From the IMG/VR virus record IMGVR_UViG_3300046370_000585, positions 6,697 through 70,696 of that record: a stretch of DNA of 64,000 nucleotides. The stretch is one strand, 5' to 3'. Shown one piece after another: positions 11,706-51,080 of this stretch (positions within the stretch are counted from its first letter, which is position 1; every line of letters starts with the position of its first letter). A program made the translations under genes and the position numbers. The notes under the pieces were generated by a model that was not told the DNA's origin, did no database searches, and saw only the letters and a list, made by a program, of their open reading frames with translations. This DNA comes from a virus.

Positions 11706-11707
11706 AA

Positions 11708-20359: not shown

Positions 20360-20439
20360 AACTTTTTTTAGAAAAATGTTGACATCGACAGCCAATCTGT
20401 CATGCTGAAAGAATAACAACTCAAATTAGGAATAAATAA

Positions 20440-22980: not shown

Positions 22981-23012
22981 AAAAGTGTAATTATAAGCGA
23001 AAGGAACACACC

Positions 23013-23540: not shown

Positions 23541-23589
23541 TGTGCCATTATTATGGAATAACAAACGAAAAACCCAAAACAAAAAAATT

Positions 23590-25824: not shown

Positions 25825-25893
25825 CATTTCACGGAATATAAACGATAATATACGAATACTAAATTGAAAAACAAACTAGAAGGATTGAAAAAA

Positions 25894-28520: not shown

Positions 28521-30746
28521 TTGATTGACTTTGAAAGCCCTATCTGCCAATATAGTACCATGAACAATAAAGAAATGCTCAAGCAAAACATAGTTGATAA
28601 GCGTCTAACGCTCGCAACTCTCATGTATAACGCATCATCAAAGATGAACGAAGAAGAGATCGAGGAGATGAAATCAGATTGTCAAAGACTACATCTGTTT
28701 GCAATGAATGGAGATTTGCAAGGAGCATTGGAAGGAACGGAAAAACTTATAAAACAAATTCAAAATAAAACAAATAATGAATAAAGAGTTTTGGAGCAAC
28801 ATGAAGAATGTGTCAAATATAATGGCAGACCTTGAGGCAGAGCATGAAAGGTTTTTTAGTAACGAAGAAGAATTACAACTTCTTAATTATAAAAAGAATT
28901 TTGTAGATTCAATTTTATTTTGGTCTGAGTCTAAAGAGATGAATGAAGAAGAAAAGATGAATAGAATTAGATGGGAGTATAATAATATGTTTGATTTGTT
29001 ATGTAAAATTATTGATAAAAATGTAGAAGAATGGGACAATAATACAAATAATAATAAAAATGACGACTACGACTTCTAAGACAACAAATAAACACTCCAA
29101 AAGCCTAGAAACCTTAATAAGAAATAATATTTGGGAATATCATGTATGGAATTGGAAAGGAAAAGATAAATTACGAATCTTAAATTTGTCTAGCTCAGAT
29201 AAAGATGTAGAATTTTTAAGAGAGCAAGGATATGAAAAAATAAATACGATTGATCCAAATAATATAACAAATCTTGATAATGAACGAGAATACCATGTTG
29301 CTATATCCATTTACCCCAACGATCAAATAAAGAACTACGAAGATAGAGAAGACTATATGTACGAAATGTATGAAAGAATACATCTTAATGGGGCAATTTT
29401 TATATGTGTTTCAAATAAAAGTGGAATAGAACTAGATTGTAATATAATTGAAGAGAATAGAAGTTATACTTGGTATGTAACTTGATAAAATTTTTCATAA
29501 AATTATTGCGAGAAAAACTTCTTAAATTTTTTAGTTGACAACAACCCTCATATTTGAGATACTATAACCATATGACGAGCGAATCAGACAAATCAATCTT
29601 ACGAGAGATCGCTAAACTTCACAAGAAAATTGATTATCTTACAGACGAAGTTATGTCAAGACTAGATCAATTACCTAAAGAGGAAGAGGAAGCTCAAAAA
29701 GATTTTCCATTTGCACCTAACCCACAAGGGATCAAAGAAATCAAAATCAAACGAAAGGAATAAAAATGAGTATTGCGAAAAATGCTAGAACAAGTCAAAT
29801 CATGCGTAACATCGAAAGCGGACATTATGTAGGAAACAAGCGTTTCCAAGGGTATGGCACTTTACCCGAAGATATTCCATCTTGGGATTATCGAGCAAGA
29901 AGGCATGGTCAGGTATTAGCGAAGCTAGAGAGAGACGCTCAACGCAAAATTCGTAAAAACAAATAGCTTGACACATCGCGTGTCTTGCCATAGTATTGTC
30001 TTATGAATACAGCAGAAGCCTTTTTACAAGATATTGAGCTTTCCATCAAGCAAGTAGAGAAAGAAGCAAACTCTCAACCTCGCAAGGGCATGATGGTTTA
30101 CTTAGATAAATCCACACCAATTATGGTGCAGTACGCCAACGAAAGCTCATTCAACAAAGCAAAAGCAGTTTCGTCTCGGAAGGGACAACAATCTTGTCTT
30201 AGAAATGTAATTGATAACGGAGGAAAGATGCAATGAGTGAATCGTATGTAGAGTTTGATAAGTTGGCATGGATTAGCGATAAGCCAATTCCTGTTAGAGG
30301 CACGGAAGTAAATGTTCGGATCAATGGTATCGGACGCTCAGTAGTACAGAAGTATTTTGTTGAGCATAACATCATTGGTCTAATTGTAAAGCCTTATGAT
30401 CCGCCAGCTTGGTACATCAAGCAGAATGGAGCAGATGCAGTATGCCATGTGTTTCCAGCAGAAACCGAAGAGCTTAAGGTTGTCACTGAGGAAGGTAAGC
30501 CTAATAAACAATTTTATGAAGCAAGCCATGATTCACTCAGAGATGATTACCCCTTTGGTACAATTACACAAGGAGATAAAAAATTGATGGAGATGATGGA
30601 TAATAATCAGTAGTAAAATAAAGGAGAAAGGATAAAAATTCATTTAGCTTAATATAATACAAATACATATAAAATAAAAACTCGAATAGAGTAAATATAA
30701 AATAATAAAAGCGATTCGTAACTTCTTGCGGTGGAGGGAGTTGCGG

Positions 30747-30763
30747 AAATCGCCCGCCGATTT
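30747..30763 (+). repeat. Palindromic intergenic element, copy 1 (core only)
   Basis: AAATCGCCCGCCGATTT. Confidence 0.9.
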
Positions 30764-31307
30764 TTAAAAGTTGTCAAGCATAAAATTCATAAAGTTTTTT
30801 TAGTTTTACAAAAAAAAGTGTTGACTCCATGCTAAAAACTGTCATACTAGGTACTATGACATACGCACAAGAACAACTAGAATATCTCGAATGGAAAAAT
30901 CAGTTCGAGAAAGAAAAACGATATCACCCATGCGACATTAAGGAAGGAGTCTATGCTTTAGTAGATGATGATAGTCCTAGTGAATCGCCAATGTATTTTC
31001 TCACATTGGAAGGGGCATCAACTTATGCAAAGGGAAGTTACCCTTACTCAAATGGCAATTGGTCAGTATATAGAATAGGAAACAAAGTATTATGACAATG
31101 ATTACAGGAAAAGAACAAATTGATGCTTTTAGGGCAAGAGTATTGCTTAGAGGCTTGAAACTAGAAACGCTTGGTATGACAAGGCGAGGACAATCTTGCT
31201 ATGCAATCATCAAACAAGAATACGGATTGAAAGGCAGTAAGAAAAAAGTTTACGAAGAATTCAAAAAGATGCTTGACATATAGCAGAAAATTTGAGACAA
31301 TACTATT

Positions 31308-32513
31308 ATGCAGAAACTTGAAAAGCTATACAAAATTGACTCTCTAGGTAAACTACGAGAGTGGACTATGGTTATTGACAAAGATTCATTCTATGCCGAA
31401 AAAGGCTTAGTTGGAGGTAAAATCGTATGCGATAAACCTACAACTGCAATCGGCAAGAACGAAGGCAAGATCAATGAAACTACTAACGAAGAGCAAGCAT
31501 TGCTTGAAGCTCAAGCAAGATGGGACAAAAAACTCAAAGAAGGATATGCGTTGACTCCAAAAGATGCAGAAACAATGAGTTATTATGAACCTATGCTTGC
31601 ACAAAAGTTTGAGGATAGAGAGAAGGAAATTCAAGCTATATTCAATGACGAGTTGCGAGTTCTTTCTCAACCAAAGCTAGATGGCATCCGTTGTATAATT
31701 CGCATGGAAGATGGAGAGGTAGTTGCTCGTACTCGCAAAGGTAGAACTATCGACACAATTCCTCATGTGATTGAGGAACTGAGCGTCTTCTTTGATTGTA
31801 ACAAGAATGCCATACTCGATGGCGAGTTGTATAACCACGACTTGAAGCACGACTTCAACAAGATTGTTTCTCTTGTACGCAAAAAGACTCCCGAAATGAC
31901 CAAAGGTGATTCGGAAAAAAGTTTTGCAAGAAAACAAGCAAAGTATGAAGAGGCATTAGCAGAGTCAAAAAACTTGATTCAGTATTGGGTTTATGATTGT
32001 CCAAGGTTGTCAGATGAATACGATGAGTCAATGATATTTTCGTCTAGGAACTTTATGTTGCAAGGAGAGTTCGCTGATGTTGTGGATGGGAATTCCGTCA
32101 AACTTGTGGAAACAAGCGAGTGTTATTCTTTCTTGTCTCTCGATCAAGCATATTCTTCCTTTATGGAAAAAGGTTACGAAGGACAAATGATTCGCATTGA
32201 CTCTCCATACGAAAGCAAGCGTTCAAAGTCCTTACTCAAGCGTAAAGAGTTTCAAGATGCAGAATACAAGGTAATTGATATTGAGGAAGGTAATGGCAAT
32301 CGTAATGGTACTGCAAAGCATTTAGTATGCTATTGCGATAAAACCGACCAAACTTTCAATTCTAATGTCAAAGGTAACTTTGACTACCTTGCAGAGATTC
32401 TTGACAACAAAGATGATTACATTGGCAAATTAGCTACAATCAAGTTCTTTGAGCTAACTCCTGATGGAGTGCCACGCTTTCCATATGCAATAGCATTTCG
32501 AGATTACGAATAA
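31308..32513 (+). CDS. ATP-dependent DNA ligase
   Basis: PMLA, motif I SQPKLDGIRC, ILDGELY, YWVYD, GYEGQMIR, LLKRK and PRFP. Confidence 0.92.
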   Translation: MQKLEKLYKIDSLGKLREWTMVIDKDSFYAEKGLVGGKIVCDKPTTAIGKNEGKINETTNEEQALLEAQARWDKKLKEGYALTPKDAETMSYYEPMLAQKFEDREKEIQAIFNDELRVLSQPKLDGIRCIIRMEDGEVVARTRKGRTIDTIPHVIEELSVFFDCNKNAILDGELYNHDLKHDFNKIVSLVRKKTPEMTKGDSEKSFARKQAKYEEALAESKNLIQYWVYDCPRLSDEYDESMIFSSRNFMLQGEFADVVDGNSVKLVETSECYSFLSLDQAYSSFMEKGYEGQMIRIDSPYESKRSKSLLKRKEFQDAEYKVIDIEEGNGNRNGTAKHLVCYCDKTDQTFNSNVKGNFDYLAEILDNKDDYIGKLATIKFFELTPDGVPRFPYAIAFRDYE

Positions 32514-32524
32514 ACCACTAACCA

Positions 32525-33121
32525 TTGCGAAAAATGATTGATCCAAAAAAAGTAACAAACTATAACAGAACCAAATCCGAATTACAAGAATTTCTTTTAT
32601 TTTGTATTTGTGTGGCGGGCAAGAAAAGCAGAATAGAAGCACCAAAGCTTGATAGATTTTTGAGTTCACTTAAGCGTAGATTCAATGTAGAGGAACCTTT
32701 TGCCCTAATCCAATTGGCAAAAGAAGACGGAAGTCTTTGGGATGAAATGCAAGAGCATAGAATTGCTCCCTATTCGCAGAGATATAATAGCTTTATCGAT
32801 GTGATCACTAAACTTGATGGCAACAACTTAGATAAGTCTACATTAGATGAATTACAGTCTGTTAGGGGTATTAGCACAAAAACTAGCAGATTCTTCTTAA
32901 CGCATTCTGTAGAAAAATTCGATGATCCAATCTTAGATACTCATATTCTCAGATTCTTAAGCGACTTTGGTTACAGAGATGTACCCAAATCAACTCCTCA
33001 AAATCCAAAAGTATATGAAAGATTTTCAAGGTTATTTCGAAGTATTGCTAGATTCGAAGGTAAGAGTGTGGCAGATTTTGATCTAGAAGTTTGGACAAAG
33101 TATTCTTACGGAAACGCTTGA
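32525..33121 (+). CDS. HhH-GPD/Ogg-like DNA glycosylase-fold protein 1
   Basis: LQSVRGISTKTSRFFL...PILDTHILRFL and DFDLEVW. Confidence 0.7.
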   Translation: MRKMIDPKKVTNYNRTKSELQEFLLFCICVAGKKSRIEAPKLDRFLSSLKRRFNVEEPFALIQLAKEDGSLWDEMQEHRIAPYSQRYNSFIDVITKLDGNNLDKSTLDELQSVRGISTKTSRFFLTHSVEKFDDPILDTHILRFLSDFGYRDVPKSTPQNPKVYERFSRLFRSIARFEGKSVADFDLEVWTKYSYGNA

Positions 33122-33153
33122 CATAAAACACCAACTCCATTATATTATATATT

Positions 33154-33888
33154 ATGATTACAAAAACTATTGCTAAAAAACAAAACAAAAACGAGAGAGT
33201 AGATCGCCACATAGATATTATTAGCTCATCCAACAGATATGCCAAAGTTGATAACTTCTTTGCTAAACTAAATTCTTCTGTTGTGGATAAAGAAACTAAG
33301 TATTGGGAAGAGCTTACGATTCGTGACGATGCTGAATATTTTGATCGTTGGATATTTGCCATAATGAGCGTACATACTACATGGGAGAGTAATGTAAGAG
33401 GCTACAACGATGCAATGAGTGACTTATCATGGACAATCTCAAAGCCTAGACTAGAGAAGATGATTACTGATGCAAGAGTAGGAATCAATCATAGAAGAAA
33501 CAAAGGTCTTTGGCAACTTGTTCAAAAGTTTCGCTCGAACCCTAAACAATTTCATAAGAAAAAGAATGAAACTTGGCAAGAGTGCCGTAATCGTCTTGTA
33601 GGTAGTATTTATGGGTTAGGTCTTGCGAAGACTACATATGCTATTGCACTTGGATTTCCAACAGAAGCAAAACTCTGTTGCTTAGATGTTCATTTGCTTC
33701 GTTTTATGGGTCATAATGTAAAGAAAGGTCATGCAAGTTCTCAAAAAGTTTATGAGGAAATGGAAAACGAATGGTTAGAGCGTTGTGAGCGTTATGATGT
33801 TTCGCCAAATGTTGCAAGAGAAATTTATTGGAACAAGGTGCAAAATCGTAGAAATTCTCGCTATTGGAGTTACTGCTTAGAAAGGTAA
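33154..33888 (+). CDS. HhH-GPD/Ogg-like DNA glycosylase-fold protein 2
   Basis: RNRLVGSIYGLGLAKTTYAI...CCLDVHLLRFMG and YEEME. Confidence 0.65.
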   Translation: MITKTIAKKQNKNERVDRHIDIISSSNRYAKVDNFFAKLNSSVVDKETKYWEELTIRDDAEYFDRWIFAIMSVHTTWESNVRGYNDAMSDLSWTISKPRLEKMITDARVGINHRRNKGLWQLVQKFRSNPKQFHKKKNETWQECRNRLVGSIYGLGLAKTTYAIALGFPTEAKLCCLDVHLLRFMGHNVKKGHASSQKVYEEMENEWLERCERYDVSPNVAREIYWNKVQNRRNSRYWSYCLER

Positions 33889-34411
33889 AGTTATGGAAAC
33901 ACAAACAAATTTGAATAAACTTATGTTGGATGACGAGGCAATCTATTATCAAGAATACGATTCCGCAATCATTGGCGTAGACTCAAAAGGTAGGGTAGTT
34001 TACGATATCGACAAATGCGTAGAAATTCTTGTTGATGGAGGAATGGAATACGAGGAAGCTTGCGAATATTTTTGGTTCAATACGGAGGGTGCATATCATG
34101 GAGAAATGACTCCATTGTTTATATCTAGCATTGATAAAGTGTAATGGAAGCTTTAGTTATGCTAATTTTTTATTCTGTATGTATTTTTTTACTTTACCAA
34201 AGATTGTCATAGAATAAGTATGACAGAAGTTGAAATCCGTGAATATTTTGAGTCCATAAAATGGTTTGATGCAAAATTTGATAAAGGGGAGGACATACAA
34301 GTTATTATTCAAGATATGTGGCAAGCTTACCCAGCAGCTACCATGCATTTGCTAAAGGAGGGATTTTTTATGGCGCTTGCCTTAAGAAACTGATAAACAG
34401 CGACTTAGGGC

Positions 34412-34435
34412 AAATCGCCCGCCGATTTCGTGCCA
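34412..34435 (+). repeat. Palindromic intergenic element, copy 2
   Basis: AAATCGCCCGCCGATTTCGTGCCA. Confidence 0.92.
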
Positions 34436-34491
34436 TTTTTTTTCTAAGAAAAACCTTGACTTTACGAAGAAATCTGTCAAACTAATATATT

Positions 34492-34959
34492 ATGAAAAGA
34501 ACACACGATTGCGAAAAGTACGATATTGATTTCTCTAGAAAAGTTTTTGTTTACAAGAATCTTCATAAAGGTTGTTGGAGTATAAAACAAGATGGGCTTG
34601 TGAAGGCTCATTCTGATGGTTCTCCCATAACTTTGTATTTTACACAAATGAAAGTGAATCGCAAAGGTAGAGAGCGAGTGCTTAGAGAAAAGCGTAAGAA
34701 TGTTCATGCAGGTGTTGAGGGCTACCTTTCTCACGAAGATAGTCATGTTTGGCATGGTTGGGTAGACATGGTGGAAATTTCTTATAATCCATATAAGTAC
34801 CCTTCATTTTACGATGTGGAAACCAAGAAGTCAAGGTGGTATGCAGATCTATGCAAACTTTATCAAGATAAGGTTCTCGTTGAACGCGTGGTGCGTGGCA
34901 TCCCATTTTTTCATAACCCTGTTTACAATGAAGCTGAAAATTGCTTGACACAAGCGTAA
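34492..34959 (+). CDS. Phage hypothetical protein
   Basis: VFVYKNLHKGCWSI...GRERVLREKRKNVHA...YNPYK. TTGACT lies 36 nt before the ATG. Confidence 0.7.
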   Translation: MKRTHDCEKYDIDFSRKVFVYKNLHKGCWSIKQDGLVKAHSDGSPITLYFTQMKVNRKGRERVLREKRKNVHAGVEGYLSHEDSHVWHGWVDMVEISYNPYKYPSFYDVETKKSRWYADLCKLYQDKVLVERVVRGIPFFHNPVYNEAENCLTQA

Positions 34960-35210
34960 ACCTAAACTAGACTACATACTATGACACAATCCAAAATCAG
35001 AGAAGAAATTCTACAACTTGTAAGAGGTAACCTTGCATGGGCAGACCCAATGTCAAAAGTATGCCTAGATCAAAATCAATTGCATCCAAAAAAGTTTCCA
35101 ATTGGAAGTACATTTCAGTCCGCAGAAGAAGTCTTGGAAGACATCATTTGTGACTTGACATCCCTCCAAAATGAGCTTAGGATAGAAGCATCTTTTCAAT
35201 CAGCACAGCT

Positions 35211-35612
35211 ATGAAAACATTATACATCGTAAGAGGACTTCCAGGAAGTGGCAAGTCTAGCCTAGCAAAGAAAGTTACAGAGTTAGTATACTCTGCTGAC
35301 GACTTCTTCACCAACAAGAAAGGGGAATACAATTTCAATGCCAAATTGCTTGGAAAAGCACATGAATGGTGTTGGGGCAAAGTAAGAGATGCAATGTTCA
35401 TTGGAGTAGAAGCAGTTGCCGTTGCCAATACCTTTACTCAAGCATGGGAGGCAGAAAAGTATTATAAGATTGCAGAAGAGTATGGATACTCTGTCTTTGT
35501 AATTGAATGTCAAAATAACTTCGGTAATGTTCATGATGTGCCTCAAGAAAGTATTGACGCAATGAAAAAAAGATGGGAAAAAGACTTGACTCCTGTCGGC
35601 AATCTGTCATAA
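35211..35612 (+). CDS. P-loop kinase (AAA_33 / N4BP2-like polynucleotide kinase)
   Basis: IVRGLPGSGKS, SADDFF, AHEWC, VANTF and NVHDVP...MKKRWE. Confidence 0.8.
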   Translation: MKTLYIVRGLPGSGKSSLAKKVTELVYSADDFFTNKKGEYNFNAKLLGKAHEWCWGKVRDAMFIGVEAVAVANTFTQAWEAEKYYKIAEEYGYSVFVIECQNNFGNVHDVPQESIDAMKKRWEKDLTPVGNLS

Positions 35613-35643
35613 TTGAACATATAACACTAACAAAGGATACATT

Positions 35644-36057
35644 ATGGGATTAGATCAATACGCATATGCAACAACCGACGAGTTACCTAACTCTGAATTG
35701 GAACTTGCATATTGGAGAAAACACAATAGACTGCAAGGTTGGATGGAAGATCTTTGGATCGACAAAGGCAAACCTAATGCAAAGAAAGACCCTAGCCCTA
35801 TGGGTGATTTCAATTGCATACCTCTTGAGCTTACATTGTCAGATTTAGAGCAACTTGAAGCTCATATAGAGAATAAACAATTGCCTGCCACATTAGGCTT
35901 TTTCTTTGGGGAGGACTCTTATGAAACTAAAACAGAAGACGGAGAAACTTATCAAGAAAACGATTACGCTTACAAAGAAGAAGACCTAGCCTTTATAGAA
36001 AAGGCTCGACAAGCAATCACAGACGGCAAAAAAGTATTTTACAATTGTTGGTGGTAA
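35644..36057 (+). CDS. Phage hypothetical protein
   Basis: MGLDQY...YWRKHNRLQGW...GFFFG...YNCWW; AAGGA Shine-Dalgarno. Confidence 0.7.
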   Translation: MGLDQYAYATTDELPNSELELAYWRKHNRLQGWMEDLWIDKGKPNAKKDPSPMGDFNCIPLELTLSDLEQLEAHIENKQLPATLGFFFGEDSYETKTEDGETYQENDYAYKEEDLAFIEKARQAITDGKKVFYNCWW

Positions 36058-37182
36058 AAAATGAAATTGCTAAAAGAAATTATTGACCATTGGGGTTTTG
36101 TAGACTCAAGACAATTGCCCGAACTAGTAAAACATTTCCCTAACACTCCTCTTGTTATCAAGTGGGGAGGTATGCCAAGGGAACAAGTCGCTGCATCAAA
36201 AGTAGCTAGACGCATAGAAGAAGTTGAACAGTCAGGTAAAGACTATGTCCGTGAAGTCTTCATGTGTGCTAAACAAATGAACAACATCAAAGAAGTTTTT
36301 GGATTGACAGATTGATCTTAATTTGAAAGAATATTATCATGCAGAACATAAAAGAAGATATACAAAATCAAATCCGAAAAGTATTATTTGCTTATCCTAT
36401 CAAGTCTGAGATTGTTGAGGAAGTATGCCAAGTTGTTGAGCAAAACTTTCAAAACTATCCTTCGGGAAACCTCTCAGATTTACACTCGGATACTAAAGAT
36501 CAAAATCGTTATGTCGATAAAGATGCTGACATCGACATGCTCAACCAAATGTACAACCAAACGCTATAACTATGAATGAATACGACCAATATATTGATGC
36601 AGTTGTCTCAGAAGACGAACTCGGCACGCTACCTCCTTTAGACTCTAAGCCCGAATACGATGTTGATTCGGATACATGGGCATTACATTTTGAGTATGAA
36701 GATCCTTATACAGGAGGAAACGACATGGTTACCTTGCATTTTGACACCGAGCAAGGCGCAATCTTAACTGCAAACAAAATTATAAGCGATAGACATATAG
36801 CTATGTTAGAATTAGACAGAAAAAAAGCAGAAAACAGTCTTGACAAAAACCCTCAACAATGAGATAATTATAGCATGAAAAATCAAACGAATACGCTAGA
36901 AAAAACAATCACTAACCTTCTTGCTCGCGGAACAGCGATCGCAAGTTTTGATTATAATGGTTCCGCAAGGAATGTCGTTATTGGAGCTAAGGCTTCATCA
37001 GGAGATGACAGAGTTTGGGGAGTAATGAATAATCGAGCAATTATAGAACATAGAGGAAGAAAGTATTTATCCGCAAGAGTCAACAATGACATTGGATATG
37101 TAAAAGCTTTTTCCTTAGATAAAATTTCCAATTTTCAAGTAGATGGTTCTGTAGTATAGCCGTTGGTTAGTGGTGTGTTCAT

Positions 37183-37212
37183 GCGGAAGGTCTTCGGGCC
37201 TTCCGCTTTTTT
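37183..37212 (+). terminator. Rho-independent terminator
   Basis: GCGGAAGGTC-TTCG-GGCCTTCCGC followed by TTTTTT. Confidence 0.9.
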
Positions 37213-37220
37213 GTTTGTGA

Positions 37221-37243
37221 AAATCGCCCGCCGATTTTGTGCC
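37221..37243 (+). repeat. Palindromic intergenic element, copy 3
   Basis: AAATCGCCCGCCGATTTTGTGCC. Confidence 0.9.
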
Positions 37244-37369
37244 TCATTTTGGCAATATTTGAGACAGAAGAGGGTTTGTGTTTCATTTATGCATCACAAG
37301 AATAAAAAAAAGTATCGAACTAAGATTTTTTTTCTTGCAATTATCTTAGATTTTGTCATACTTATATAC

Positions 37370-37495
37370 ATGAAGGCAAGAGAGATAAAGATAAGAAAAC
37401 AAATTCTTTTCACCAAGTCTCGCCCACACAAGGTAAAGAAGAACACACTACATCGCAAACGCAAACACAAGGAGAACTTACATCATGTATCTTAA
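37370..37495 (+). CDS. Small basic peptide (41 aa)
   Basis: MKAREIKIRKQILFTKSRPHKVKKNTLHRKRKHKENLHHVS. TTGCAA lies 35 nt before the ATG. Confidence 0.6.
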   Translation: MKAREIKIRKQILFTKSRPHKVKKNTLHRKRKHKENLHHVS

Positions 37496-37780
37496 CGAAG
37501 AATACAACGAAGACAAAATCGAGAACGCACTTGACGCAAACGATCAAGCAATGGACTTGGTTTACAATGCAGTTATCGCCCCTATGGAAGATAAGCTAGA
37601 CGAGAAGCAAGCCTACGCTGTTGCCATTGCAGGTGCAGTCCTCAAGACTATCGCTCAAAAGGCATACGCTTACGAACAAATGCAAAAAGGTCAAGATTTG
37701 CGAAATTAGTGCTTGACTATCGCACGCATTTTTGAGATAATTATAACCATAATCAAGATAACCTAATACGAAAAAAAATT

Positions 37781-38533
37781 ATGAATAGACTAAACCTAAA
37801 CATCTGTGGTGGAGAACATACTAAAGTCGGCTTCGATGAAGTCTGTGCAGTGGAGACTCCACAAGCAACTGACACATGGCGACCAATTAGCCATAGCTAC
37901 CTTATCGACAGAGTTCGTTCTCATCTCGATGACAATGGCTACGATATTGTAGCTGAGAATCATAACCTCGCTCGCTTCGGGCAACGCTACTTTGGATTGT
38001 TTCAAGTTAGCAGTAAAGATCGCCAAGAAGGCGATAGAGGCACAATCCTAGGTCTTCGCAATGCTCACGACAAGTGCTTCCCTGCAGGACTTTGTGCAGG
38101 TGACGCCCCTTTTGTTTGTGACAACCTTGTTTTTCACAACGAGATTGTCCTTGCTCGTAGGCATACCAAGAATATCATGACTGACCTTCCTCAAGTCATT
38201 GCTCGCACCATCGGCAAATTGTCGGGTATGTGGAATACTCAAGACAAGCGAATCGAGTCCTACAAAGACTACGAGGTCACCAATGCTCAAGCGAATGATC
38301 TTGTCATTCGTGCTTACCAAGCAGGAGCAATTAGCAAGGCAAAAATTGCTGATGTCGTTGACCAATGGGAAACTCCCGAACATCCCGAATTCAAGGATCG
38401 CAATATGAATTCCTTGTACAACGGATTCACGGCAGTCCTTCGTGGAGGGGTCATGCAGTTACCAAAGCGTTCTGACGCTCTGCACTCTGTTCTTGACTCT
38501 GAAGTCGGACTTACTCTCGCAACCAAATCTTAA
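37781..38533 (+). CDS. DUF932-family phage/plasmid protein
   Basis: TWRPISH, RYFGLF, LGLRNAHDK, FVCDNL, RRHTK and SLYNGFT. Confidence 0.65.
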   Translation: MNRLNLNICGGEHTKVGFDEVCAVETPQATDTWRPISHSYLIDRVRSHLDDNGYDIVAENHNLARFGQRYFGLFQVSSKDRQEGDRGTILGLRNAHDKCFPAGLCAGDAPFVCDNLVFHNEIVLARRHTKNIMTDLPQVIARTIGKLSGMWNTQDKRIESYKDYEVTNAQANDLVIRAYQAGAISKAKIADVVDQWETPEHPEFKDRNMNSLYNGFTAVLRGGVMQLPKRSDALHSVLDSEVGLTLATKS

Positions 38534-38854
38534 TCATAAACCATAAGGAATAACTGATATGAAACATAAAAACCTCTCATCCGTTCTCAATAACCTCCAA
38601 GGGCGATTCGTTTCAGTTCTTGTCAAAGATGGCGTAAATCGTCATTCTTATTCGGCAAAATTGAAAAGTCATAGTTCTCAAGTGGTAACTTTTGTAGATA
38701 CCAATGAACCAAAAGGACGAATCTTTCGTAAGGTGCGTAGGTCAGCCATTCTTGGGCTGAAAAGTGGAAAAGATTCTTTTCGAAGAACTAAATCCATTTA
38801 GGTTAGTAGTCAAATAGGCGAATTAGCAAATAGGCAAATACGCCAATAAATACG

Positions 38855-38884
38855 GAGCCCCGAGGAGTTATCTCCTTGGGGCTC
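38855..38884 (+). terminator. Strong hairpin, probable terminator
   Basis: GAGCCCCGAGGAG-TTAT-CTCCTTGGGGCTC, after ORF 38559-38801. Confidence 0.7.
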
Positions 38885-38894
38885 AATGGTTTGC

Positions 38895-38920
38895 AAAATC
38901 GCCCGCCGATTTCGTGCCAA
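38895..38920 (+). repeat. Palindromic intergenic element, copy 4
   Basis: AAAATCGCCCGCCGATTTCGTGCCAA. Confidence 0.92.
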
Positions 38921-39114
38921 AACTTTTTTTGTAATTTTATCAATTTTTGCTTGCGTTTATTTCAATTTGTGTCATTATAGAGGAATGATAGAACTTATTA
39001 TGATTGTATTTTTTTCGTTCCTGTTAGCTATAAAAAGTCCAAATTTTAGTTGACAAACTTTAAAGATTCGCTTATTGTATTACTTATAACATTAAAACAC
39101 TAAACCTAAAAAAC

Positions 39115-39750
39115 ATGATTGCAGAAAAAATTGACACAAAACTTATAGAAGACTCTCTTAACTCCGTATCCTCTAACGGCATGACTCATCATGGTTATGC
39201 TTTCGAGGAATTTCTTATTCTTGCTTTAGGCTTTACTGAGCAAGATGGCACTCCTTATCGTTCAATTAGAGAAGGTGGCACTCAGAAGCATAATCAAGAT
39301 TTTGATATCCCTGCTGATGTTGTCGCTCGTAATCCAATTATACCTCAAAACTTGCAAGGTAATTGGTCTATAAAGGCTTGCGAGCATGGTAAAACAATTG
39401 GTTTAGGCATGGCAAACAATCAGTACAATGCATGGGCAAAAGACGGACTTATTCAAGCAATCGTTTTCTACAAGAAAGCTGATGATAGAAAAGTTGTTAG
39501 TCATTTTTCTATTCATCGTATTGAGCCATCTGTCAAATTTTGGGGCAACATTTCTAAGGAAATGATTGACAACATCGACCCAATGCTTCGCAAGGATAAG
39601 TCAATTGCATGGTCTAAAGATGAGACAAAGAAAGTAAACAGAATTGCAAACGGCATGATTGGTTTGCGTAACATCTCAAGGGAAAGCGTAGGTAGTCGCA
39701 ACCTGCAATGTTACATGACTTTCAACAATTATATGCAATTAGTTGCTTGA
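39115..39750 (+). CDS. Putative PD-(D/E)xK restriction-endonuclease-like protein
   Basis: HGYAFEE...DFDIP...WSIKA spacing resembles type II REase cores; this is only a weak motif-level match. Confidence 0.4.
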   Translation: MIAEKIDTKLIEDSLNSVSSNGMTHHGYAFEEFLILALGFTEQDGTPYRSIREGGTQKHNQDFDIPADVVARNPIIPQNLQGNWSIKACEHGKTIGLGMANNQYNAWAKDGLIQAIVFYKKADDRKVVSHFSIHRIEPSVKFWGNISKEMIDNIDPMLRKDKSIAWSKDETKKVNRIANGMIGLRNISRESVGSRNLQCYMTFNNYMQLVA

Positions 39751-39781
39751 CAAAAACCCTTTAATCTGAAAGAATAAAATT

Positions 39782-40012
39782 ATGGAAAACAACACTACAT
39801 ACAACGGATGGAAAAATTGGGCAACTTGGAATGTTGCTCTTTGGTTAGCTAACGACGAAGATCTATACAGAATTTCTCGTAGATTTGTAAACTACAAAGA
39901 TCTTGCAAATGCTCTTGAGGATTTTGGCATGAAAGTCACGCCTGATGGAGCGAGCTACCAAGATAAAGACCTTGATACTTACGCTCTTGATGAGTGGCTA
40001 ATGGATGAATAA
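39782..40012 (+). CDS. Small phage protein (YNGWxNxxTWNVxLW type)
   Basis: YNGWKNWATWNVALWLANDEDLY; leaderless promoter at 39747. Confidence 0.7.
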   Translation: MENNTTYNGWKNWATWNVALWLANDEDLYRISRRFVNYKDLANALEDFGMKVTPDGASYQDKDLDTYALDEWLMDE

Positions 40013-40022
40013 ACTGTGGCGA

Positions 40023-40056
40023 TTGGCATAAAAATCGCCCGCCGATTTCGTGCCAA
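40023..40056 (+). repeat. Palindromic intergenic element, copy 5 (full 34 bp)
   Basis: TTGGCATAAAAATCGCCCGCCGATTTCGTGCCAA. Confidence 0.95.
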
Positions 40057-40849
40057 CTTTACCTCTAAAAAAAATCGCATTTTGTGAATAACTTTATCAC
40101 TTTTTTCTTGCAATTACCAAAAAACTATGCTACCTTGTAGGTATATGATTAAGACTACTACATACAAAAAAGGAGATGTTCTGATCTCTCGTGACAACCA
40201 AGTTCTTCAGTTCAAGGGAACTTTCAACCATCCCGAACTCGGCAAGATTGCTAAGGTTCGAATTTACAACACGAACCGAGAGGTCGGCATCCGTTTCGAA
40301 GATGTCAAACTTCATCCATTTTTTTCTTAACTTAGGGGTTGACAAAAACCATTTTATTTGATTGAATACAATTATGACAGAATCACAAAGACTAGAACTC
40401 ATCGCTAACGCAGTCGCCAAGACTAACAAAAAAGTTGCTCCTCAGTTTGAGGATTTACTTGCAGACCTTCTCTCAGAAAAACTTGTTGTTGAGCATGGCT
40501 TGACAGAAGCAAAAGAAGATGACATTAAGGAGGAATTTGTTTCTCTCGATGCCGTTGGAAGTGACTCCGAGAAGGAGGACTTTGATAATGACGAAAATCT
40601 TGTCGATATGAATTGCCGAAGCTCTTTTTGGCAAGAAATTGAATCCTAAACGAAAGGAAAATTATGCTAATCCTACAATCAATCCCATTTTCGAATAAAG
40701 CAGGTTGGGTAACCGAGTCAATCCCAATGTATAAGAAGCAAGCTGAGGCTTTGCTCAAAATGCGAACCCTTGGCAACAAGGGCAAGAACCGAAGGCGGTA
40801 CAGACTCATAAAAGCTGAGTAAATAGCTCAGCAACAATACTTTGCGCGA

Positions 40850-40883
40850 TTGGTACAAAAATCGCTGGCCGATTTCGTGCCAA
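40850..40883 (+). repeat. Palindromic intergenic element, copy 6 (full length, between convergent genes)
   Basis: TTGGTACAAAAATCGCTGGCCGATTTCGTGCCAA. Confidence 0.93.
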
Positions 40884-41886
40884 CTTTTATATTATTCGTA
40901 AAGTCCGTCCCTAGCAAGGGAAAGTTCTTGGAGAATTTTGTTATACTCTTTTCTTGCTTTTCGTATTGCGTGCAAGGCATCTTGCACCGCTTCGCCTTGA
41001 GTCATAGTCTGCATTTCTGCCTCAGCCAAAAACTTTAAGTTTCCCTCAGCTTTGGACATTGCTAAAGCACATTCAAGTGCAGGATATCTTTTTTTTATTT
41101 TTTTCATATTTAGCAAGCCTTTTGAAAAACAACATTGAAGCGAAACTGATTAAGACCTTCGTCCCTCATGATTCTATTGAGATGAGACTGACTCGATGCA
41201 GTACGAACGCGTGGGCGATCATTGCCATCGGAATCGACGCCTTGATCGAAAATTTTTACTGCCCAATGAGTTGACCACTCTTGGATTCTAACTTGTATTT
41301 TATCTTTTAGCATAACTAACTATCGCATATTTTATTACTGAAGTCAAATTTTTTTTCAATTATTTTTCCACTCCCAAAGTTCGGGGTGAGAGTTCCAATG
41401 AAAAAAGAACCTTCCGTCTGATGTTTTCGCAACACTTTTTTCGTAATCCGAAGGTTCAACTCCGTACTTAAGGCGAAAGTTTGCTTCTGAAGTAGAGATT
41501 TGAAGATCTTTTTTGAGCTTAACAATTTCACCCATTGTAGGTCGATAAGTTTTATTTTTGAATACTCTAACCCTCTTCGGTTTAGTTTTATCAAAGTTCG
41601 TTGGCTTCGATTGAAATCGGTCAGGGGCATAGGCATTCCAAAGCTTTGCAACTTCATCAGCCGAAGCTTGTTTAGTATTGACTAAAGTGTTTGCAACATT
41701 TTGCAATTGCTTGCGTTCGTTGCGTCCGCGATTCCAAACGGAGTGGTCATCTGAATAGTCGTAAAACCAATCGTGAGACTTTAAGTCATTAGTGAATTCG
41801 GTTAGTAGGTTATTTATCATATAACATAAATGTAAACAAATTTTAGTAAAATTGCAAGCACAAAATGCGTTTTTGGTGATTTTTTT

Positions 41887-41912
41887 TTGGCATAAAAATC
41901 GCGGGGCGATTT
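41887..41912 (-). repeat. Palindromic intergenic element, copy 7
   Basis: TTGGCATAAAAATCGCGGGGCGATTT (as read on the + strand). Confidence 0.9.
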
Positions 41913-42152
41913 GACCCTCAAAAGTCATGTTGGGCATGATACCCGTAGTCAATGTCCTCTTGCTCCTCGAAGTCAAGAAGAGCAATCCTGTCTTGCAGGT
42001 CGCCAATTTCATTGCGAATCGCGACTCGGTCTGCAACCGAAAGAACGCAGTCCTTAAGGGTTTCGTGAAGGATAGAGATTTCTTTGAGCATTTCTGATTT
42101 AGTCATAAGTATAATCTAACACAAATTTTTATAAAGTCAAACTTTTTTTGCT

Positions 42153-42171
42153 AAAAAATCGCGGGGCGATT
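42153..42171 (-). repeat. Palindromic intergenic element, copy 8
   Basis: AAAAAATCGCGGGGCGATT (as read on the + strand). Confidence 0.85.
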
Positions 42172-42550
42172 GCCCCCGCCTAGAATATCTCTAGGTCGGG
42201 TTGTGCTGTATCGCTTGCGAACCAGTCGGAAGCGTTTATTATTTCACCGTTCAACACGGGCTCGAATTTGAATTGGTAAACGCCCGCGTTTGCTATGCCG
42301 TTAACGCGTTCGCGTGTGGTCGGTGTGTTCCAGCCTGCGAGCGACCAACGGACTAACCCATCAGGATCACGCTTAACAATTGCGTTGCCATGCAACCAAA
42401 CGGTGTTTCCGTCTGTCCTAGTGTTGCCAACTTTTTTGGCTACGCGTTGCTCGAATGCTTGTTTGATTTGTTCTGTAACTTTTCTCATATAATTATAAAC
42501 TAAAGCAGATAAAGCTAAATTGCAAGCAAAAAGATAATTTTTTTCAAAAA

Positions 42551-42576
42551 AAAATCGCGGGCCGATTTCGTGCCAA
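42551..42576 (+). repeat. Palindromic intergenic element, copy 9 (between divergent genes)
   Basis: AAAATCGCGGGCCGATTTCGTGCCAA. Confidence 0.92.
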
Positions 42577-42817
42577 TTAAAAAAGTTTATTTTACGAAAA
42601 AAAGTGTTGACTTAGCTTCCCATTTGTGCATAATGGTATACATGAACGCTAAAGAAAGAATGAATGAATGGAAAAAGCTTCCTTCGAATACTATTGCTTG
42701 GGAAACTTTCAAACGGCTAGTATCTCAGTTCGGAATGGACGAAGGTATCAAGAAAGCCCAAAAGATAATTGAAAAAAAAGGTTGACAAACACACATAAAA
42801 ACTGATAGGATTACATC

Positions 42818-43540
42818 ATGCTAAAAACTACATTGCTTACATCAGGAAACCAAAAAATTCTCAAAGGCGAAAAACTTGGTTATATAACAAAAGGTATTCA
42901 TCTTGCCCCAGCAAATCTTGCGGGCTACGAAGTTTGCCAATGGCGATCAAAGGGTTGCACTATGGCTTGTCTTAACACGGCAGGTCGTGGACAAATGAAT
43001 TCTGTGCAACAATCACGCATTGCCAAGACAAAACTCTTTTTTGAGCAAAAAACTGATTTTCTTGCTAAACTTGCAAAAGAAATCACATCTACCATAAAAA
43101 GCTCAATCAAGAAAGAAATGCAAGCGGTATTCCGTCTCAATCTCACAAGCGACATTATGTGGGAAAGCGAAAAAGACTTGCAAGGAAAAACAATTTTTGA
43201 GCAATTCAAAGATACCATGTTTTACGATTACACAAAGTCGTTCAAACGCATGACAAACTTTCTTTCAAAAGAAAAAAACTTTCCATCAAACTATCACTTA
43301 ACTTTCAGCCGTTCGGAGCATAACGACAAACTTTGCGAAATGGTTCTCGAAATGGGTGGTAATGTTGCCGTGGTATTTAGGAATCAACTTCCGCAAACTT
43401 GGAAGGGTTGCGAAGTTGTAAATGGCGACGAAACGGACTTGCGTTTTCTCGACAAAAAAGGTGTGGTCGTCGGGCTTATCGAAAAAGGTATGGCAAAGAA
43501 AGATGAAACAGGATTTGTTCAAGAAGGAATTGACTCTTGA
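42818..43540 (+). CDS. gp88-like phage protein (Cys cluster CxxxxxxCxxxC)
   Basis: CQWRSKGCTMACLNTAGRG, RLNLTSDI, FYDYTK, NYHLTFSRSE and GDETDLRFLD. Confidence 0.6.
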   Translation: MLKTTLLTSGNQKILKGEKLGYITKGIHLAPANLAGYEVCQWRSKGCTMACLNTAGRGQMNSVQQSRIAKTKLFFEQKTDFLAKLAKEITSTIKSSIKKEMQAVFRLNLTSDIMWESEKDLQGKTIFEQFKDTMFYDYTKSFKRMTNFLSKEKNFPSNYHLTFSRSEHNDKLCEMVLEMGGNVAVVFRNQLPQTWKGCEVVNGDETDLRFLDKKGVVVGLIEKGMAKKDETGFVQEGIDS

Positions 43541-43741
43541 CAAAACAACTTAACTCAACTATTATTTCAACATGAATGACACTTATTACGACTCAGCAGA
43601 AGGAATAACCTTATCACAAGAAGAAGCCTTTGGGGTGCTTGCCCAACATGGTTGCCAAGAACTTGATGAATTTTTTCAAGACATGGGTGACAAAGAAGAA
43701 TATGACGCACAGAAAGTTTTAGAGTGGCTAGGGTATTGAAA

Positions 43742-43775
43742 TTGGCATAAAAATCGCCCGCCGATTTCGTGCCAA
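43742..43775 (+). repeat. Palindromic intergenic element, copy 10 (identical to copy 5)
   Basis: TTGGCATAAAAATCGCCCGCCGATTTCGTGCCAA. Confidence 0.95.
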
Positions 43776-44863
43776 GTTGTAGACTTAACTTTTTTTATTT
43801 TTTTTTGCGATTAGGTGTTGACATATTCCTTCAAGGGGTTTATATTACTTATATGAACACTAAAAAAGAATTACAAGAGATTATCCAACAAAACACTGAA
43901 GCTGCAGAACTTGGCTGTGCTTTTTCTCGCATGAAAATTATAAATGCCCAAGCAGAACTAGATAAAATTGAAAGTCAATCCAAGGAATCTGTTTTGGAAT
44001 TATTTTCTCAACAACAAAGAAATTTAGTTGAATTTAGCTTGACATTCTGAACCAAAACATTAGGATTATATTTACTATGAAAATTCAACAAGAAATCTCT
44101 CGACTAACTTCAACGCTTCAAGCCCTCACTCAACAAAGACTTCTCGCTCTTCGTGAGGGTAAACATTCCGAAGCCAATCAGATTGCCTCTGTGCAAGTTG
44201 ATATTGATAACAAGATTCAAGAGCTAGAAAAAAAGATATAATTTTAGCTTGACACTCCAACCATATTACTACATACTGATATTATGATTACGATAAAAAG
44301 ACACCCAAACCTTGATAATTGGATAAACATTAGCTTCTTTGGTAAGCTCATTGAGCAAACTACTTCGAGGGCTAAAGCATTGCGTCTTGCGACTGCACTC
44401 TCTCGAAAGAATAACGATGTTGTTATTCATGACCTTGACGAACTACCTATTCACCTAAGATCAAGCAACTCATGAGTAACTTGCAAAAATCATTAGAAAT
44501 TGATAATCCTTTTGTGTTGACTTGTATTGATGGCAAGGCAATTATTATGCGAAAAGATAATCCTATTTATAACCCTTTACAAAACGACAGAATTCTTTCT
44601 ATTGATTGCGTTCTCGCCAATTCAGAAAGACTGACAGAGATTAAGGAAGGAATATTTTATTTGTCATGATTGATAAGATTTTATTTTGTTTGTCGATGCT
44701 TTATCTTTGTTTTGTTGGATCTTGCTTTCTTTTTGGTTGTGCAATGTTTGCAGAAGTAATTAGCAAAGGATTCTAATGAGTTGGGATATTTTACTTTTCT
44801 TGCCGTGGCTTTGGGTGTTCTGGGTTATGTGGCAAGACCTAGCAAGGGACTGAAAGAGGTAAG

Positions 44864-45389: not shown

Positions 45390-45405
45390 GCAGTATTCAT
45401 GCCAA
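45390..45405 (-). promoter_or_regulatory. sigma54 (RpoN)-type -24/-12 promoter for hsp20
   Basis: Minus strand TTGGCATGAATACTGC (GG-N10-GC), 13 nt before ATG 45377. Confidence 0.6.
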
Positions 45406-45473: not shown

Positions 45474-46346
45474 TTGCCTATCATAAGAATGAAAATAGCG
45501 CATGTAGTAAATACTTTAGAGATTAAAGAAAAACATAAATGGGATCATTTACACATCGCTCAAGATGTTACTTTGCGAACAATGAGTTATGCTAAACAAT
45601 CTACATATCATAGTGAAGTTGAGCTTTTTTCTATAAAAAGCAAACAAGATAATTTTACTCCTCCTCCAGAATTTACTTGCCTGCCTGATATTGAGAGAAA
45701 TTGTTCAGACGTATTCCCAGACCTACCTTCTTCGAGGGATTATCCGTTGATTGGGGATATTATAACTCCGATGATAGAATCCTCTGATGCAGATATTTTT
45801 ATTGTCACTAATGTCGATATTAGCATATTTCCTACGTTCTATGATTTTGTTTATAAACATATGCTCATGCATGACATTGATTGTTTAACTATAAATAGAA
45901 GAGATGTTTCTCAAACAATAGATGGTCGATTAATAGATGTAAATACAGTTATAGATGACTTGCCAGAAATAAAAGAAATGTGCAAACCATGGCACGCTTA
46001 TCATCCTGGAACAGACTGCTTTGCTTTTACAAAAGAAATTGCAAAAGATTTAATATGGGGGAATGTTTTTGTTGGCAGACCTCCTGTTGGTCAAATGTTT
46101 TTAGAGAACGGTTACAAATTCACAAAAAAAGGATTTCATAATATCAACAAAAAGCTTACGAATTTTCATCGAAAGCGATTCAAAAAACACGGGCTCGCTT
46201 TTCCTAAAAAGCATTGGGCTTTTCAAACGTTTCATTTAGGTACAACTCAATTTAACGGAGGGAGATGGAAAAACAATAAAAAACTTCAAAAAGACCCTTG
46301 GTACTTAAAAAATATTAAAGCTAAACTTAACGCTTGGCATGATTAG
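45474..46346 (+). CDS. Putative glycosyltransferase-like protein
   Basis: DIFIVTNVDI, INRRD and HPGTDCFAF; first gene of the glycan cluster. Confidence 0.5.
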   Translation: MPIIRMKIAHVVNTLEIKEKHKWDHLHIAQDVTLRTMSYAKQSTYHSEVELFSIKSKQDNFTPPPEFTCLPDIERNCSDVFPDLPSSRDYPLIGDIITPMIESSDADIFIVTNVDISIFPTFYDFVYKHMLMHDIDCLTINRRDVSQTIDGRLIDVNTVIDDLPEIKEMCKPWHAYHPGTDCFAFTKEIAKDLIWGNVFVGRPPVGQMFLENGYKFTKKGFHNINKKLTNFHRKRFKKHGLAFPKKHWAFQTFHLGTTQFNGGRWKNNKKLQKDPWYLKNIKAKLNAWHD

Positions 46347-47082: not shown

Positions 47083-47084
47083 AA

Positions 47085-51058: not shown

Positions 51059-51080
51059 GGATTAAAATTATCATCATACA

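Follow-up and report, generated by a model that had tools for sequence, protein, structure and literature searches.

In a 64,000-nt stretch of viral DNA (IMG/VR record IMGVR_UViG_3300046370_000585, positions 6,697 to 70,696; hereafter referred to as the window), we analyzed a palindromic element, AATCG-N5-CGATT, that recurs ten times between genes of the early region. Our leading, still tentative reading is a composite one, in which the palindrome is read by a protein dimer and its flank is a docking site for sigma-54, within cassettes that resemble the promoter-early stem-loop (PeSL) cassettes of T4-type phages. The element would be a DNA-level protein recognition site lying after one early transcription unit and before the sigma70 promoter of the next. 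A symmetric dimer would read AATCG-N5-CGATT, the candidate being the phage's own protein P0174, which may bind, nick or cut it, and the host sigma-54 polymerase would dock on the flank, mostly aimed back at the preceding gene and forward in a minority of copies. A protein bound to the palindrome would sit over the -12/melting region of the sigma-54-type motif, and owing to this overlap the two readers would interact. In addition, as comparison of relatives shows, recombination between identical palindromic copies of 17-34 bp has moved and inverted gene blocks. Large lytic phages have fast-changing sets of small early genes whose reassortment is only partly understood; if correct, the composite reading would link the exchange of modules and the control of early genes in an abundant marine lineage to a defined pair of site and enzyme. 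Apart from the element, the clade has two unusual expression features, namely a conserved sigma-54 promoter and pervasive leaderless early genes.

The palindrome and its distribution

We scanned the window for the core pattern AAATCG-N5-CGATT on both strands and found ten sites (30747, 34412, 37221, 38896, 40032, 40859, 41896, 42156, 42552, and 43751), compared with a mean of 0.02 expected from 100 shuffles of the window. The ten sites gave 19 strand hits, because the copy at 42156 lacks the final T and matched on one strand alone. An earlier sequence-only reading of this DNA had listed the same ten positions, the missing T of the eighth copy, the four spacer variants and a 34-mer shared by the copies at 40023 and 43742, all of which we recovered; the spacer is CCCGC six times, CGGGG twice, and CTGGC and CGGGC once each, 40023-40056 and 43742-43775 agree letter for letter, and no third copy of the 34-mer was found with up to three mismatches allowed. 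Its statement that the element is confined to this 13-kb stretch also held across the whole 70,696-base record, of which the window covers bases 6697-70696 and in which no further core copy was detected. As had likewise been claimed, all ten copies fall between open reading frame (ORF) calls, with a reservation for 41896, which lies inside a long TTG-start frame on the minus strand (41356-42036) that is more likely two genes (41316-41657 and 41918-42106).

Two related IMG/VR contigs were located through an exact 23-mer of the element, and in total 48 copies were found in five records (38 outside the window's record), each with one cluster of 8.4-17.3 kb and none elsewhere in the record. Ten copies belong to the window's record (G000; window positions 30747-43767, span 13.0 kb, record 70.7 kb), ten to G001 (19564-32322, 12.8 kb, record 50.6 kb), 12 to G002 (80998-98283, 17.3 kb, record 116.5 kb), seven to G003 (70162-78589, 8.4 kb, record 80.0 kb), and nine to G004 (3818-13722, 9.9 kb, record 82.5 kb). 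No copy was present in 78 of 80 loci around homologues of a GP88-family gene (most 72-84% identical), nor in three relatives of 128-203 kb that are 95-100% complete. An IMG/VR scan with a 15-mer of the S-register flank described below returned 58 loci, nine of them with a full core, and these nine were in the known relatives plus one new contig (L296). A looser pattern (AAAATCGC-N4-CGATTT) was set aside; among the matches listed, most were single chance hits. Given the absence of copies from most related loci and from the near-complete relatives, the element therefore appears to be confined to a small subclade within a large clade of marine phages.

Across the 48 copies, the invariant part is AATCG-N5-CGATT and the outermost A/T pair is variable. 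The spacing is strict, with N5 in all 48 copies and 0-2 occurrences for each other spacing from 0 to 15, and the half-site centres lie about one helical turn apart. The spacer itself takes 19 forms and is rich in G+C (five of five bases in 30 copies, four in 17, and three in one) against genomes of 34-37% G+C. Orthologous copies kept their half-sites while their flanks and N5 diverged. Relaxed matching added a few more degenerate copies with uncompensated changes: the equivalents of copy 1 in G001 and G004 carry an uncompensated CGAATT, one G001 site has AATTCG, and at one G003 site the flank and left half were kept while the right half had decayed.

These features bear on a rather unlikely alternative, in which the element is the stem-loop of an ordinary PeSL, that is, an RNA hairpin that terminates or stabilizes the upstream transcript and is conserved because its copies are recent duplicates. 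The element occupies the position of PeSL stem-loops with a fixed 5-nt spacing, and the available text of PMC4122927 describes lineage-specific PeSL stem consensus sequences such as A3-4G3-loop-C3T3-4. An RNA fold of the 34-mer including both outer arms reached -11.8 kcal/mol (z -3.3), and copy 8 is terminator-like on the minus strand. However, both outer arms, and with them the stable fold, are present in 4 of 48 copies, and the core-only hairpin was no better than shuffles (z 0 to -1) in five of six short contexts. An intrinsic terminator combines a G+C-rich stem with a U tract; the stem of the core, in contrast, has two G-C pairs among mainly A/T pairs and includes the T run. A terminator scan listed copies 5 and 8, through other stems, and did not list cores 1-4, 6, 7, 9, and 10. 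The uncompensated mid-stem changes and the retention of half-sites rather than flanks or N5 among orthologues also speak against a hairpin.

Moreover, several copies lie downstream of canonical terminators. Copy 3 follows a canonical intrinsic terminator (37183..37206, plus strand; 10-bp stem, UUCG loop, T6), copy 4 follows a strong 13-bp hairpin with no clean T run (38855..38884, plus strand), and since these copies and their equivalents in relatives are past strong or canonical terminators, they probably sit in little-transcribed DNA. A third hairpin named in the sequence-only reading (40814-40832, upstream of copy 6) proved terminator-like on the minus strand alone, so that of its three proposed terminators the one at 37183 stood in full, the one at 38855 as a strong hairpin, and the last on the opposite strand. 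The weak hairpin, the uncompensated half-site changes, and the copies behind canonical terminators therefore point to a DNA site for proteins. Altogether, fixed half-sites one turn apart, strict spacing around a free spacer, uncompensated variants, and location in gaps that are presumably little transcribed lead us to favour a symmetric protein over an RNA hairpin, in line with the earlier suggestion of a site for a dimeric protein.

Polar flanks with sigma-54 spacing

The element is asymmetric, and it is polar because of its flanks: TGGCA(C/T) adjoins 37 of 48 copies in one of two registers. We classed each of the 96 copy sides by its flank, with the S register defined as TGGCA-NN-A straight before AATCG and the L register as one base more, and obtained 23 S sides, 16 L sides, and 57 sides with neither; two more S sides have a G before AATCG. 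Flanks on both sides were found in four copies, and 11 of 48 copies have none. Read from the flank, the spacer starts with GC in 23 of 23 S sides and both G variants, compared with 13 of 57 armless sides (Fisher p 3e-11), and it starts with C in 16 of 16 L sides, where the G of TCG completes a GC at the same distance. In both registers GC thus stands exactly ten bases past the GG of TGGCA (GG-N10-GC), which is the -24/-12 geometry of sigma-54. Flank variants (TGGCATG, TGGCACA, TGGCATA, and TGGCATT) retained TGGCA and GC, and two orthologous positions have swapped the S and L registers with the spacer altered accordingly. A small hairpin (GCCG/CGUGC, the spacer GC pairing with the GC of TGCC) was rejected as the main cause of this coupling, because S-flank variants that break the upper pairs (8 of 25) keep GC. 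Antisense small-RNA genes composed of arm, hairpin, and U-rich tail were also considered and rejected, the tails being inconsistent. A reverse arrangement, CGATT-N8-AATCG, was observed in eight copies (window 40020-40037 and 40847-40864, and L-type copies of G001 and G002), in which an extra half-site precedes the L flank to give three half-sites in a row (CGATT-N8-AATCG-N5-CGATT).

The portion of PMC2831329 at hand gives the sigma-54 consensus as TGGca-N4-5-ttGCaa and the glnA promoter of E. coli as TGGCACAGATTTCGC. The flanks resemble that promoter in TGGCAC at -24, GC ten bases after GG, and TCGC at -12, and three L flanks of G002 (TGGCACAGAAATCGC) are two spacer positions away from it. The -12 region of the arms is TCGC, as in the glnA promoter given there, or CGGC, and that of the hsp20 promoters of the same phages is NTGCAA. 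Differences from sigma-54 promoters are that the motif lies within a palindrome, mostly faces the 3' end of the preceding gene, and has no T at -14, that the stretch downstream is G+C-rich, and that no activator site or gene was identified.

A sigma-54 -24/-12 promoter of regular form (TGGCATG-N4-CTGC; 45390..45404, minus strand) lies 12 nt before the second in-frame ATG of the hsp20 gene, which is the ATG conserved in relatives, and 3 nt before the first. An hsp20 homologue was found in 10 of 83 loci and records searched, five of the ten without the element, and all were preceded by TTGGCAYR-N4-NTGCAA, with the ATG 10-13 nt downstream in the eight whose start could be aligned and with four varying spacer bases. 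The hsp20 promoter was seen at the same place in G001-G006, L161, L162, L163, L165, and L167, and is thus kept across the wider clade. From its position, the hsp20 transcript would be leaderless, and the promoter may be taken as a sign that this phage clade uses host sigma-54. No other intergenic sigma-54-like motif stood out in the other 78 loci.

The seven S flanks of the window (copies 2-6, 9, and 10) are all on the right side and read on the minus strand; those of copies 2-5 and 10 aim at the 3' end of the preceding plus-strand gene, and that of copy 9 is directed at the minus-strand gene 42180-42488. Its three L flanks (copies 5, 7, and 10) read on the plus strand, and in G002 the L flanks of four successive cassettes face forward, at about 84 nt from the -35 box of a downstream sigma70 promoter. 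If they fire, the arms would yield antisense or long-leader transcripts.

We consider it unlikely that the element is a plain sigma-54-dependent promoter, or a silent docking site of the polymerase, without a second protein. Such a site would account for the 39 flanks (41 with the two G variants) that fit TGGCA(C/T) with GG-N10-GC in two registers, for their closeness to the glnA promoter, and for the company of a genuine sigma-54 promoter ahead of hsp20; silent docking has a parallel in E. coli, where sigma-54 binds many sites in an inactive state, many of them within genes, according to the text available from PMC4591121. It leaves unexplained the 11 flankless copies, which nevertheless contain both half-sites, and the invariance of the far half-site and of the exact N5, neither of which a sigma-54 promoter requires. 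The symmetry is not that of two overlapping promoters, since flanks occur on both sides in four copies alone. The lack of a T at -14, the orientation of most arms into the 3' end of the preceding gene, and the absence of a recognizable activator in the five records also weigh against it.

Block exchange and candidate reader proteins

The window runs collinear with G002 between 28.4 and 38.9 kb, and past the latter position blocks are reordered with their ends overlapping elements. Copy 4 marks the meeting point of the collinear and shuffled parts and is itself chimeric, its left flank corresponding to G002:89534 and its spacer and right flank to G002:93474; similarly, at G004:8015 a copy-4-type left flank is joined to a copy-9-type right flank. 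When the 96 outward flanks were clustered into families, these families re-paired between genomes (e.g., in G000 family 8 is paired with family 2, in G004 with family 1), and the segment 40474-40758 is inverted in two relatives. We then compared 43 gene junctions between the window and four relatives, gap by gap, counting a change in at least one relative. Neighbouring genes that are both present yet no longer adjacent were found in 6 of 9 element gaps versus 4 of 28 other gaps (Fisher p 0.005), whereas any change, including gene presence or absence, affected 7 of 10 element gaps and 22 of 33 others (Fisher p 0.58). The breakpoint check proposed in the sequence-only reading was thus borne out by chimeric junctions inside the core and by the excess of rearranged gaps; gene gain and loss showed no enrichment at elements. 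Judged by comparison of the sequences, block exchange and inversion at the copies have happened between relatives, and since the core is palindromic, exchange between two copies may delete or invert.

The same reading had proposed a search for excised circles or inversions; none were seen in the contigs of three DNA runs, which is a weak test. Contigs of runs X1, X2, X4, and X20 showed no real joint at an element. An apparent joint from 37238 to 42590 was dismissed as the copy-1 region, which lies outside the compared stretch and maps to two similar places, and contig breaks at copies 5 and 10 are explained by the repeated 34-mer.

Two further alternatives were considered. One, which we regard as improbable, is that the element has no regulatory role and is a short selfish or hitch-hiking repeat offering a foothold for homologous recombination. 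The chimeric junctions inside the core, the re-pairing of flanks, and the enrichment of rearrangements at elements are all as such a repeat would leave them, and in a relative lacking the element the equivalent cassette centre is a variable G+C-rich sequence. However, a 17-bp core is short for homologous exchange to be efficient, N5 drifts between half-sites that do not vary over the 48 copies, the spacer GC is tied to the flank register, and copies 1-3 of the ten window copies show no rearrangement relative to any relative. A mobile unit similar to a miniature inverted-repeat transposable element was ruled out, as flanks re-pair right at the 17-34 bp core and neither terminal repeats nor target duplications were seen.

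The other alternative, that the element is the target on which a dedicated site-specific recombinase acts, crossing over within N5 as in integrons or invertases, is very improbable. Inverted half-sites around a short spacer, together with block translocation and one inversion bounded by copies, would be expected of such a target. However, five Pfam/PHROGs scans of the 177 window ORFs (some ORFs repeated) recognized no integrase, resolvase, or invertase family, an absence that is not firm because the records are incomplete. Strand exchange by known recombinases requires matching spacers, and N5 has an odd length and 19 forms; this variability argues against a dedicated site-specific recombination site. 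The recombination site suggested in the sequence-only reading was therefore not upheld in its dedicated form.

Returning to the composite reading, we profiled the window ORFs against the four other carrier records and 80 non-carrier loci for subclade-specific genes that might encode the reader. P0174 (39115..39750, plus strand; 211 aa) is the first gene after copy 4 and has a predicted restriction-endonuclease/MutH-like fold. It is present in all four other carriers (48-80% identity) and weakly in 2 of the 80 other loci (27% identity in the one listed), and all four IMG/VR loci with a P0174 relative, including a new 15-kb contig, have a core beside the gene, as do G000 and G004. The AlphaFold model (mean predicted local distance difference test score, pLDDT, 89.5) gave type II restriction enzymes or MutH as the best and most of the listed Foldseek matches. 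In VIA, the best 50 matches were all type II restriction enzymes or MutH (Z 4.9-7.5, 110-174 residues aligned), led by MutH (Z 7.5, 167 residues) and followed by ThaI, DpnI, SwaI, SfiI, HincII, Sau3AI, EcoRV, and PvuII. Its language-model neighbours included clusters in which 11-19% of members belong to the ThaI, SmaI, or NgoBV families. All 16 sequences compared share D64 and S85-x-K87, which may form a variant PD-(D/E)XK active site, for which Cfr10I offers a precedent. P0174 is the best candidate reader of the palindrome.

A second subclade-specific gene, P0001 (36875..37159, plus strand), lies just upstream of copy 3 and encodes a 94-aa stand-alone WYL/Sm-like protein. It occurs in 4 of 4 carriers (79-83% identity) and 0 of 80 non-carriers, and its 50 database relatives are all 70-99% identical. 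The best matches of its model (pLDDT 74) were WYL domains, namely PafBC (Z 8.7) and the DriD domain bound to single-stranded DNA (Z 8.4), followed by Rof (6.9) and Hfq (6.7), so P0001 is possibly a binder of single-stranded nucleic acid. No direct link between P0001 and the element was found. The P0001 gene has its own strong leaderless promoter, and Rof is an inhibitor of Rho. No helix-turn-helix protein was recognized in the scans of the window ORFs mentioned above.

Several points weigh against the composite reading. With regard to the dimer, the co-occurrence of P0174, P0001, and the element within one small subclade amounts to one evolutionary event, and the position of P0174 beside an element is weak evidence because about half of the cluster genes touch one. 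The fold match does not exceed Z 7.5, which is middling by the tool's own note, and for an enzyme that cuts, ten sites in the phage's own genome would have to be explained; no DNA methyltransferase (PF00145, PF01555, or PF02086) was matched in the five records, which are 39-76% complete. With regard to sigma-54, the -12 region of the arms lacks the TGCA seen before hsp20, the arms are not followed by an ATG at leaderless distance, most of them are oriented antisense, and 11 of 48 copies are armless. The five element-bearing records yielded neither a sigma-54 gene (PF04552) nor an enhancer-binding protein, their sole PF00158 match being a ClpB-like two-ring ATPase of G002. The breakpoint test was based on four related comparators and 37 gaps. 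Finally, we made 22 promoter assignments downstream of cores over the 48 copies (TTGACA-like/16-18/TATAAT-like), in which the distance from the core centre to the next -35 box ranges from 33 to 133 nt; this is no classical fixed-position operator. An activator at a fixed distance was likewise ruled out by this range, the cluster at 84-85 nt (7 of 22) consisting entirely of paralogous cassettes.

A more far-reaching possibility, which we hold to be unlikely, is that P0174 nicks or cuts the palindromes bounding the cassettes and so drives programmed block exchange at co-infection, with the sigma-54 arms as an antisense control layer. If so, nicking or cutting by P0174 would constitute a system of modular exchange by enzyme plus site in a lytic phage, unlike integrons and the passive recombination of PeSLs. 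Such a device would exchange, move, or invert blocks, and the sigma-54 arms would add activator-dependent, mostly antisense control of early cassettes.

Known systems, cassette layout and the phage

Among described systems, the PeSL cassettes of T4-type phages are the closest in kind, as far as the available parts of PMC4122927 and PMC2839356 go. The likeness, per the portions of PMC4122927 seen, lies in a small intergenic stem-loop or terminator with an A/T-rich tract and a strong sigma70-like promoter, and in location within a plastic region of small accessory genes beside exchanges and rearrangements, with a lineage-specific consensus. The element differs in that its centre is a weak hairpin with invariant half-sites and a strict N5, often beside a separate strong terminator, in its sigma-54-like flank, and in its leaderless genes, whereas PeSLs have Shine-Dalgarno sequences in the same text (PMC4122927). 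It is also enriched at block rearrangements rather than single-gene indels and has a possible cognate enzyme, and the phage is no close relative of T4 (terminase about 26% identical to its best cultured matches). The sequence-only reading had called the element a different system from PeSL; the shared layout with a lineage-specific centre does not bear this out, given that stem-loop consensus sequences vary by phage lineage in the accessible text of PMC4122927. Our search of the literature on PeSL, pelagimyophages, and sigma54 in phage genomes found no description of the element.

Other comparisons are more distant. Palindromes interrupted by N5 are a classic type of restriction site, as in SfiI (GGCC-N5-GGCC). 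The element shares with type II restriction sites two short fixed half-sites with five unconstrained bases between them and the gene of a restriction-fold protein next to a copy, but its copies are enriched rather than avoided in their own genome and are all intergenic, and no methyltransferase was found in the five partial records. Temperate actinophages have multi-copy operator sets, such as the L5 stoperators and the phiC31 conserved inverted repeats, that are bound by one phage protein. As in these, many copies of a short conserved intergenic site lie in the early region; unlike in these, neither a repressor nor an integrase was seen, the phage appears to be lytic, and the copies are 33-133 nt upstream of promoters instead of within them. 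In T5 and phiKMV, a phage enzyme makes site-specific single-strand nicks at a short consensus repeated a few times in the genome. The element is likewise a short consensus at few genome places, and the nickase MutH heads the fold matches of P0174; however, its copies are clustered in 13 kb rather than genome-wide, and nicking here is conjecture.

A typical unit runs from gene end through hairpin, core, flank, and A/T tracts to a sigma70 promoter and an ATG 6-7 nt past the -10 hexamer. Examples are TTGACT-16-CATAAT (42607..42634, plus strand), 47 nt from the centre of copy 9 with the ATG 7 nt past the -10 hexamer, and TTGACA-17-TATATT (43818..43846, plus strand), 59 nt from the centre of copy 10 with the ATG 6 nt past it. 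A downstream sigma70-like promoter ending 5-9 nt before an ATG was present for the cores at 30747, 42552, and 43751, and this arrangement was found for 25 of 129 window ORFs versus 26 of 1000 random ATGs; it leaves no room for a leader and thus for a PeSL-style Shine-Dalgarno sequence. We detected 64 sigma70-like sites versus 43 expected, with perfect TTGACA boxes ahead of many genes, and nearly every gene in the region has its own promoter. The layout of promoter plus leaderless gene noted in the sequence-only reading was therefore confirmed but extends beyond the element, sigma70 promoters far outnumbering elements. Additional single half-sites (GCGATT or AATCGC) occur near some promoters. 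Within 29500-44500, leaderless near-consensus TTGACA-17-TATAAT examples were seen at 33118-33154, 36840-36875, and 43537-43572, and several -35 boxes include the TGA stop of the preceding gene (33118, 39747, 42782, and 43537). Two to six tandem-like (C)AAATAG repeats stand in the 3' untranslated stretch before terminator hairpins (window 38826-38850; G002 ~89460-89500), and such repeats also occur downstream of the GP88-family gene in L161, L163, and L167, including relatives without the element.

The individual copies differ in completeness. Copy 1 (30747..30763, no strand assigned) is a core alone, AAATCG-CCCGC-CGATTT, without the TGGCA flank. Copy 2 (34412..34435, minus strand) consists of core and right flank in the S register and reads TGGCACGAAATCGGC on the minus strand. 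Copy 3 (37221..37244, minus strand) has an S-type right flank of the AGGCACA variant and lies 15 nt past the terminator hairpin described above, and copy 4 (38896..38920, minus strand) has a right S flank past its 13-bp hairpin. Copies 5 (40023..40056) and 10 (43742..43775), neither assigned a strand, are the full 34-mer, with a left L-register flank reading on the plus strand and a right S-register flank reading on the minus strand. Copy 6 (40850..40883, minus strand) combines N5 CTGGC with a right S flank and a degenerate left flank (TTGGTAC), while copy 7 (41887..41912, plus strand) joins a left L flank (TGGCATAAAAATCGC) to a core with N5 CGGGG and lies between two minus-strand ORFs. Copy 8 (42156..42172, no strand assigned), the core without its last T, overlaps on the minus strand a terminator-like hairpin (42161-42179) behind the minus-strand gene 42180-42488. 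Copy 9 (42552..42576, minus strand) has N5 CGGGC and a right S flank, and lies between divergent genes.

In a relative without the element (L172, 6481-14961), a 75-nt intergenic unit occurs seven times in the same place, and similar motifs are found in most related loci. This unit comprises a conserved imperfect palindrome (CGTAAGTCGTTG...CAACGAGTTACG), A5, a centre of variable G+C-rich sequence, T3-6, and a repeat of the palindrome. RNAalifold gave weak support on both strands, and the unit could represent either another protein site or a family of RNA hairpins. The copy-2 region can be aligned by eye with one such unit, and the element looks like a cassette centre, variable in the rest of the clade, that has become fixed and palindromised.

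The window's record has an estimated completeness of 53%. The window encodes rIIA and rIIB homologues, a clamp-loader-like ATPase, an ATP-dependent DNA ligase, UvdE, the large terminase, and Hsp20, as well as a weak sigma70-region-2 match and a block of glycosyl- and sulfotransferases. A megablast of the region against 50,697 phage records gave no match, that is, no near-identical cultured phage, and protein searches showed cultured relatives to be distant, the terminase matches being those of Clostridium and Bacillus phages and the rIIA homologue being 27% identical to rIIA of Ruegeria phages. Near-identical DNA is present in seawater, marine, and estuary metagenome runs of 14 studies, with no RNA run among those listed. 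No Rfam family reached its gathering score in the window, and no tRNA genes were found. Homologues of a cytidylyltransferase-oxidoreductase gene gave no consistent taxon for the host, and a Flavobacteriia host, suggested by one P0001 homologue on a contig so binned, was discounted because the phage promoters are of E. coli type.

Several neighbouring genes were also of note. In one run at 45474-51770, three sulfotransferase-family genes lie with an exostosin-like and a sialyltransferase-like glycosyltransferase, and LicD and cytidylyltransferase genes are located at 2401-5445; together these point to surface-glycan modification, and most of the glycan-related genes in both places are without homologues in relatives. 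A subclade-specific 70-aa ORF with a basic tail (51984-52196, minus strand) has a weak match to the Xre/MbcA/ParS antitoxin C-terminal domain (E 0.003, below the cut-off). Finally, G002:C1 at ~35745-38250 (L242, 904-3306) encodes a phage ClpA/ClpB-like two-ring AAA+ chaperone of >800 aa.

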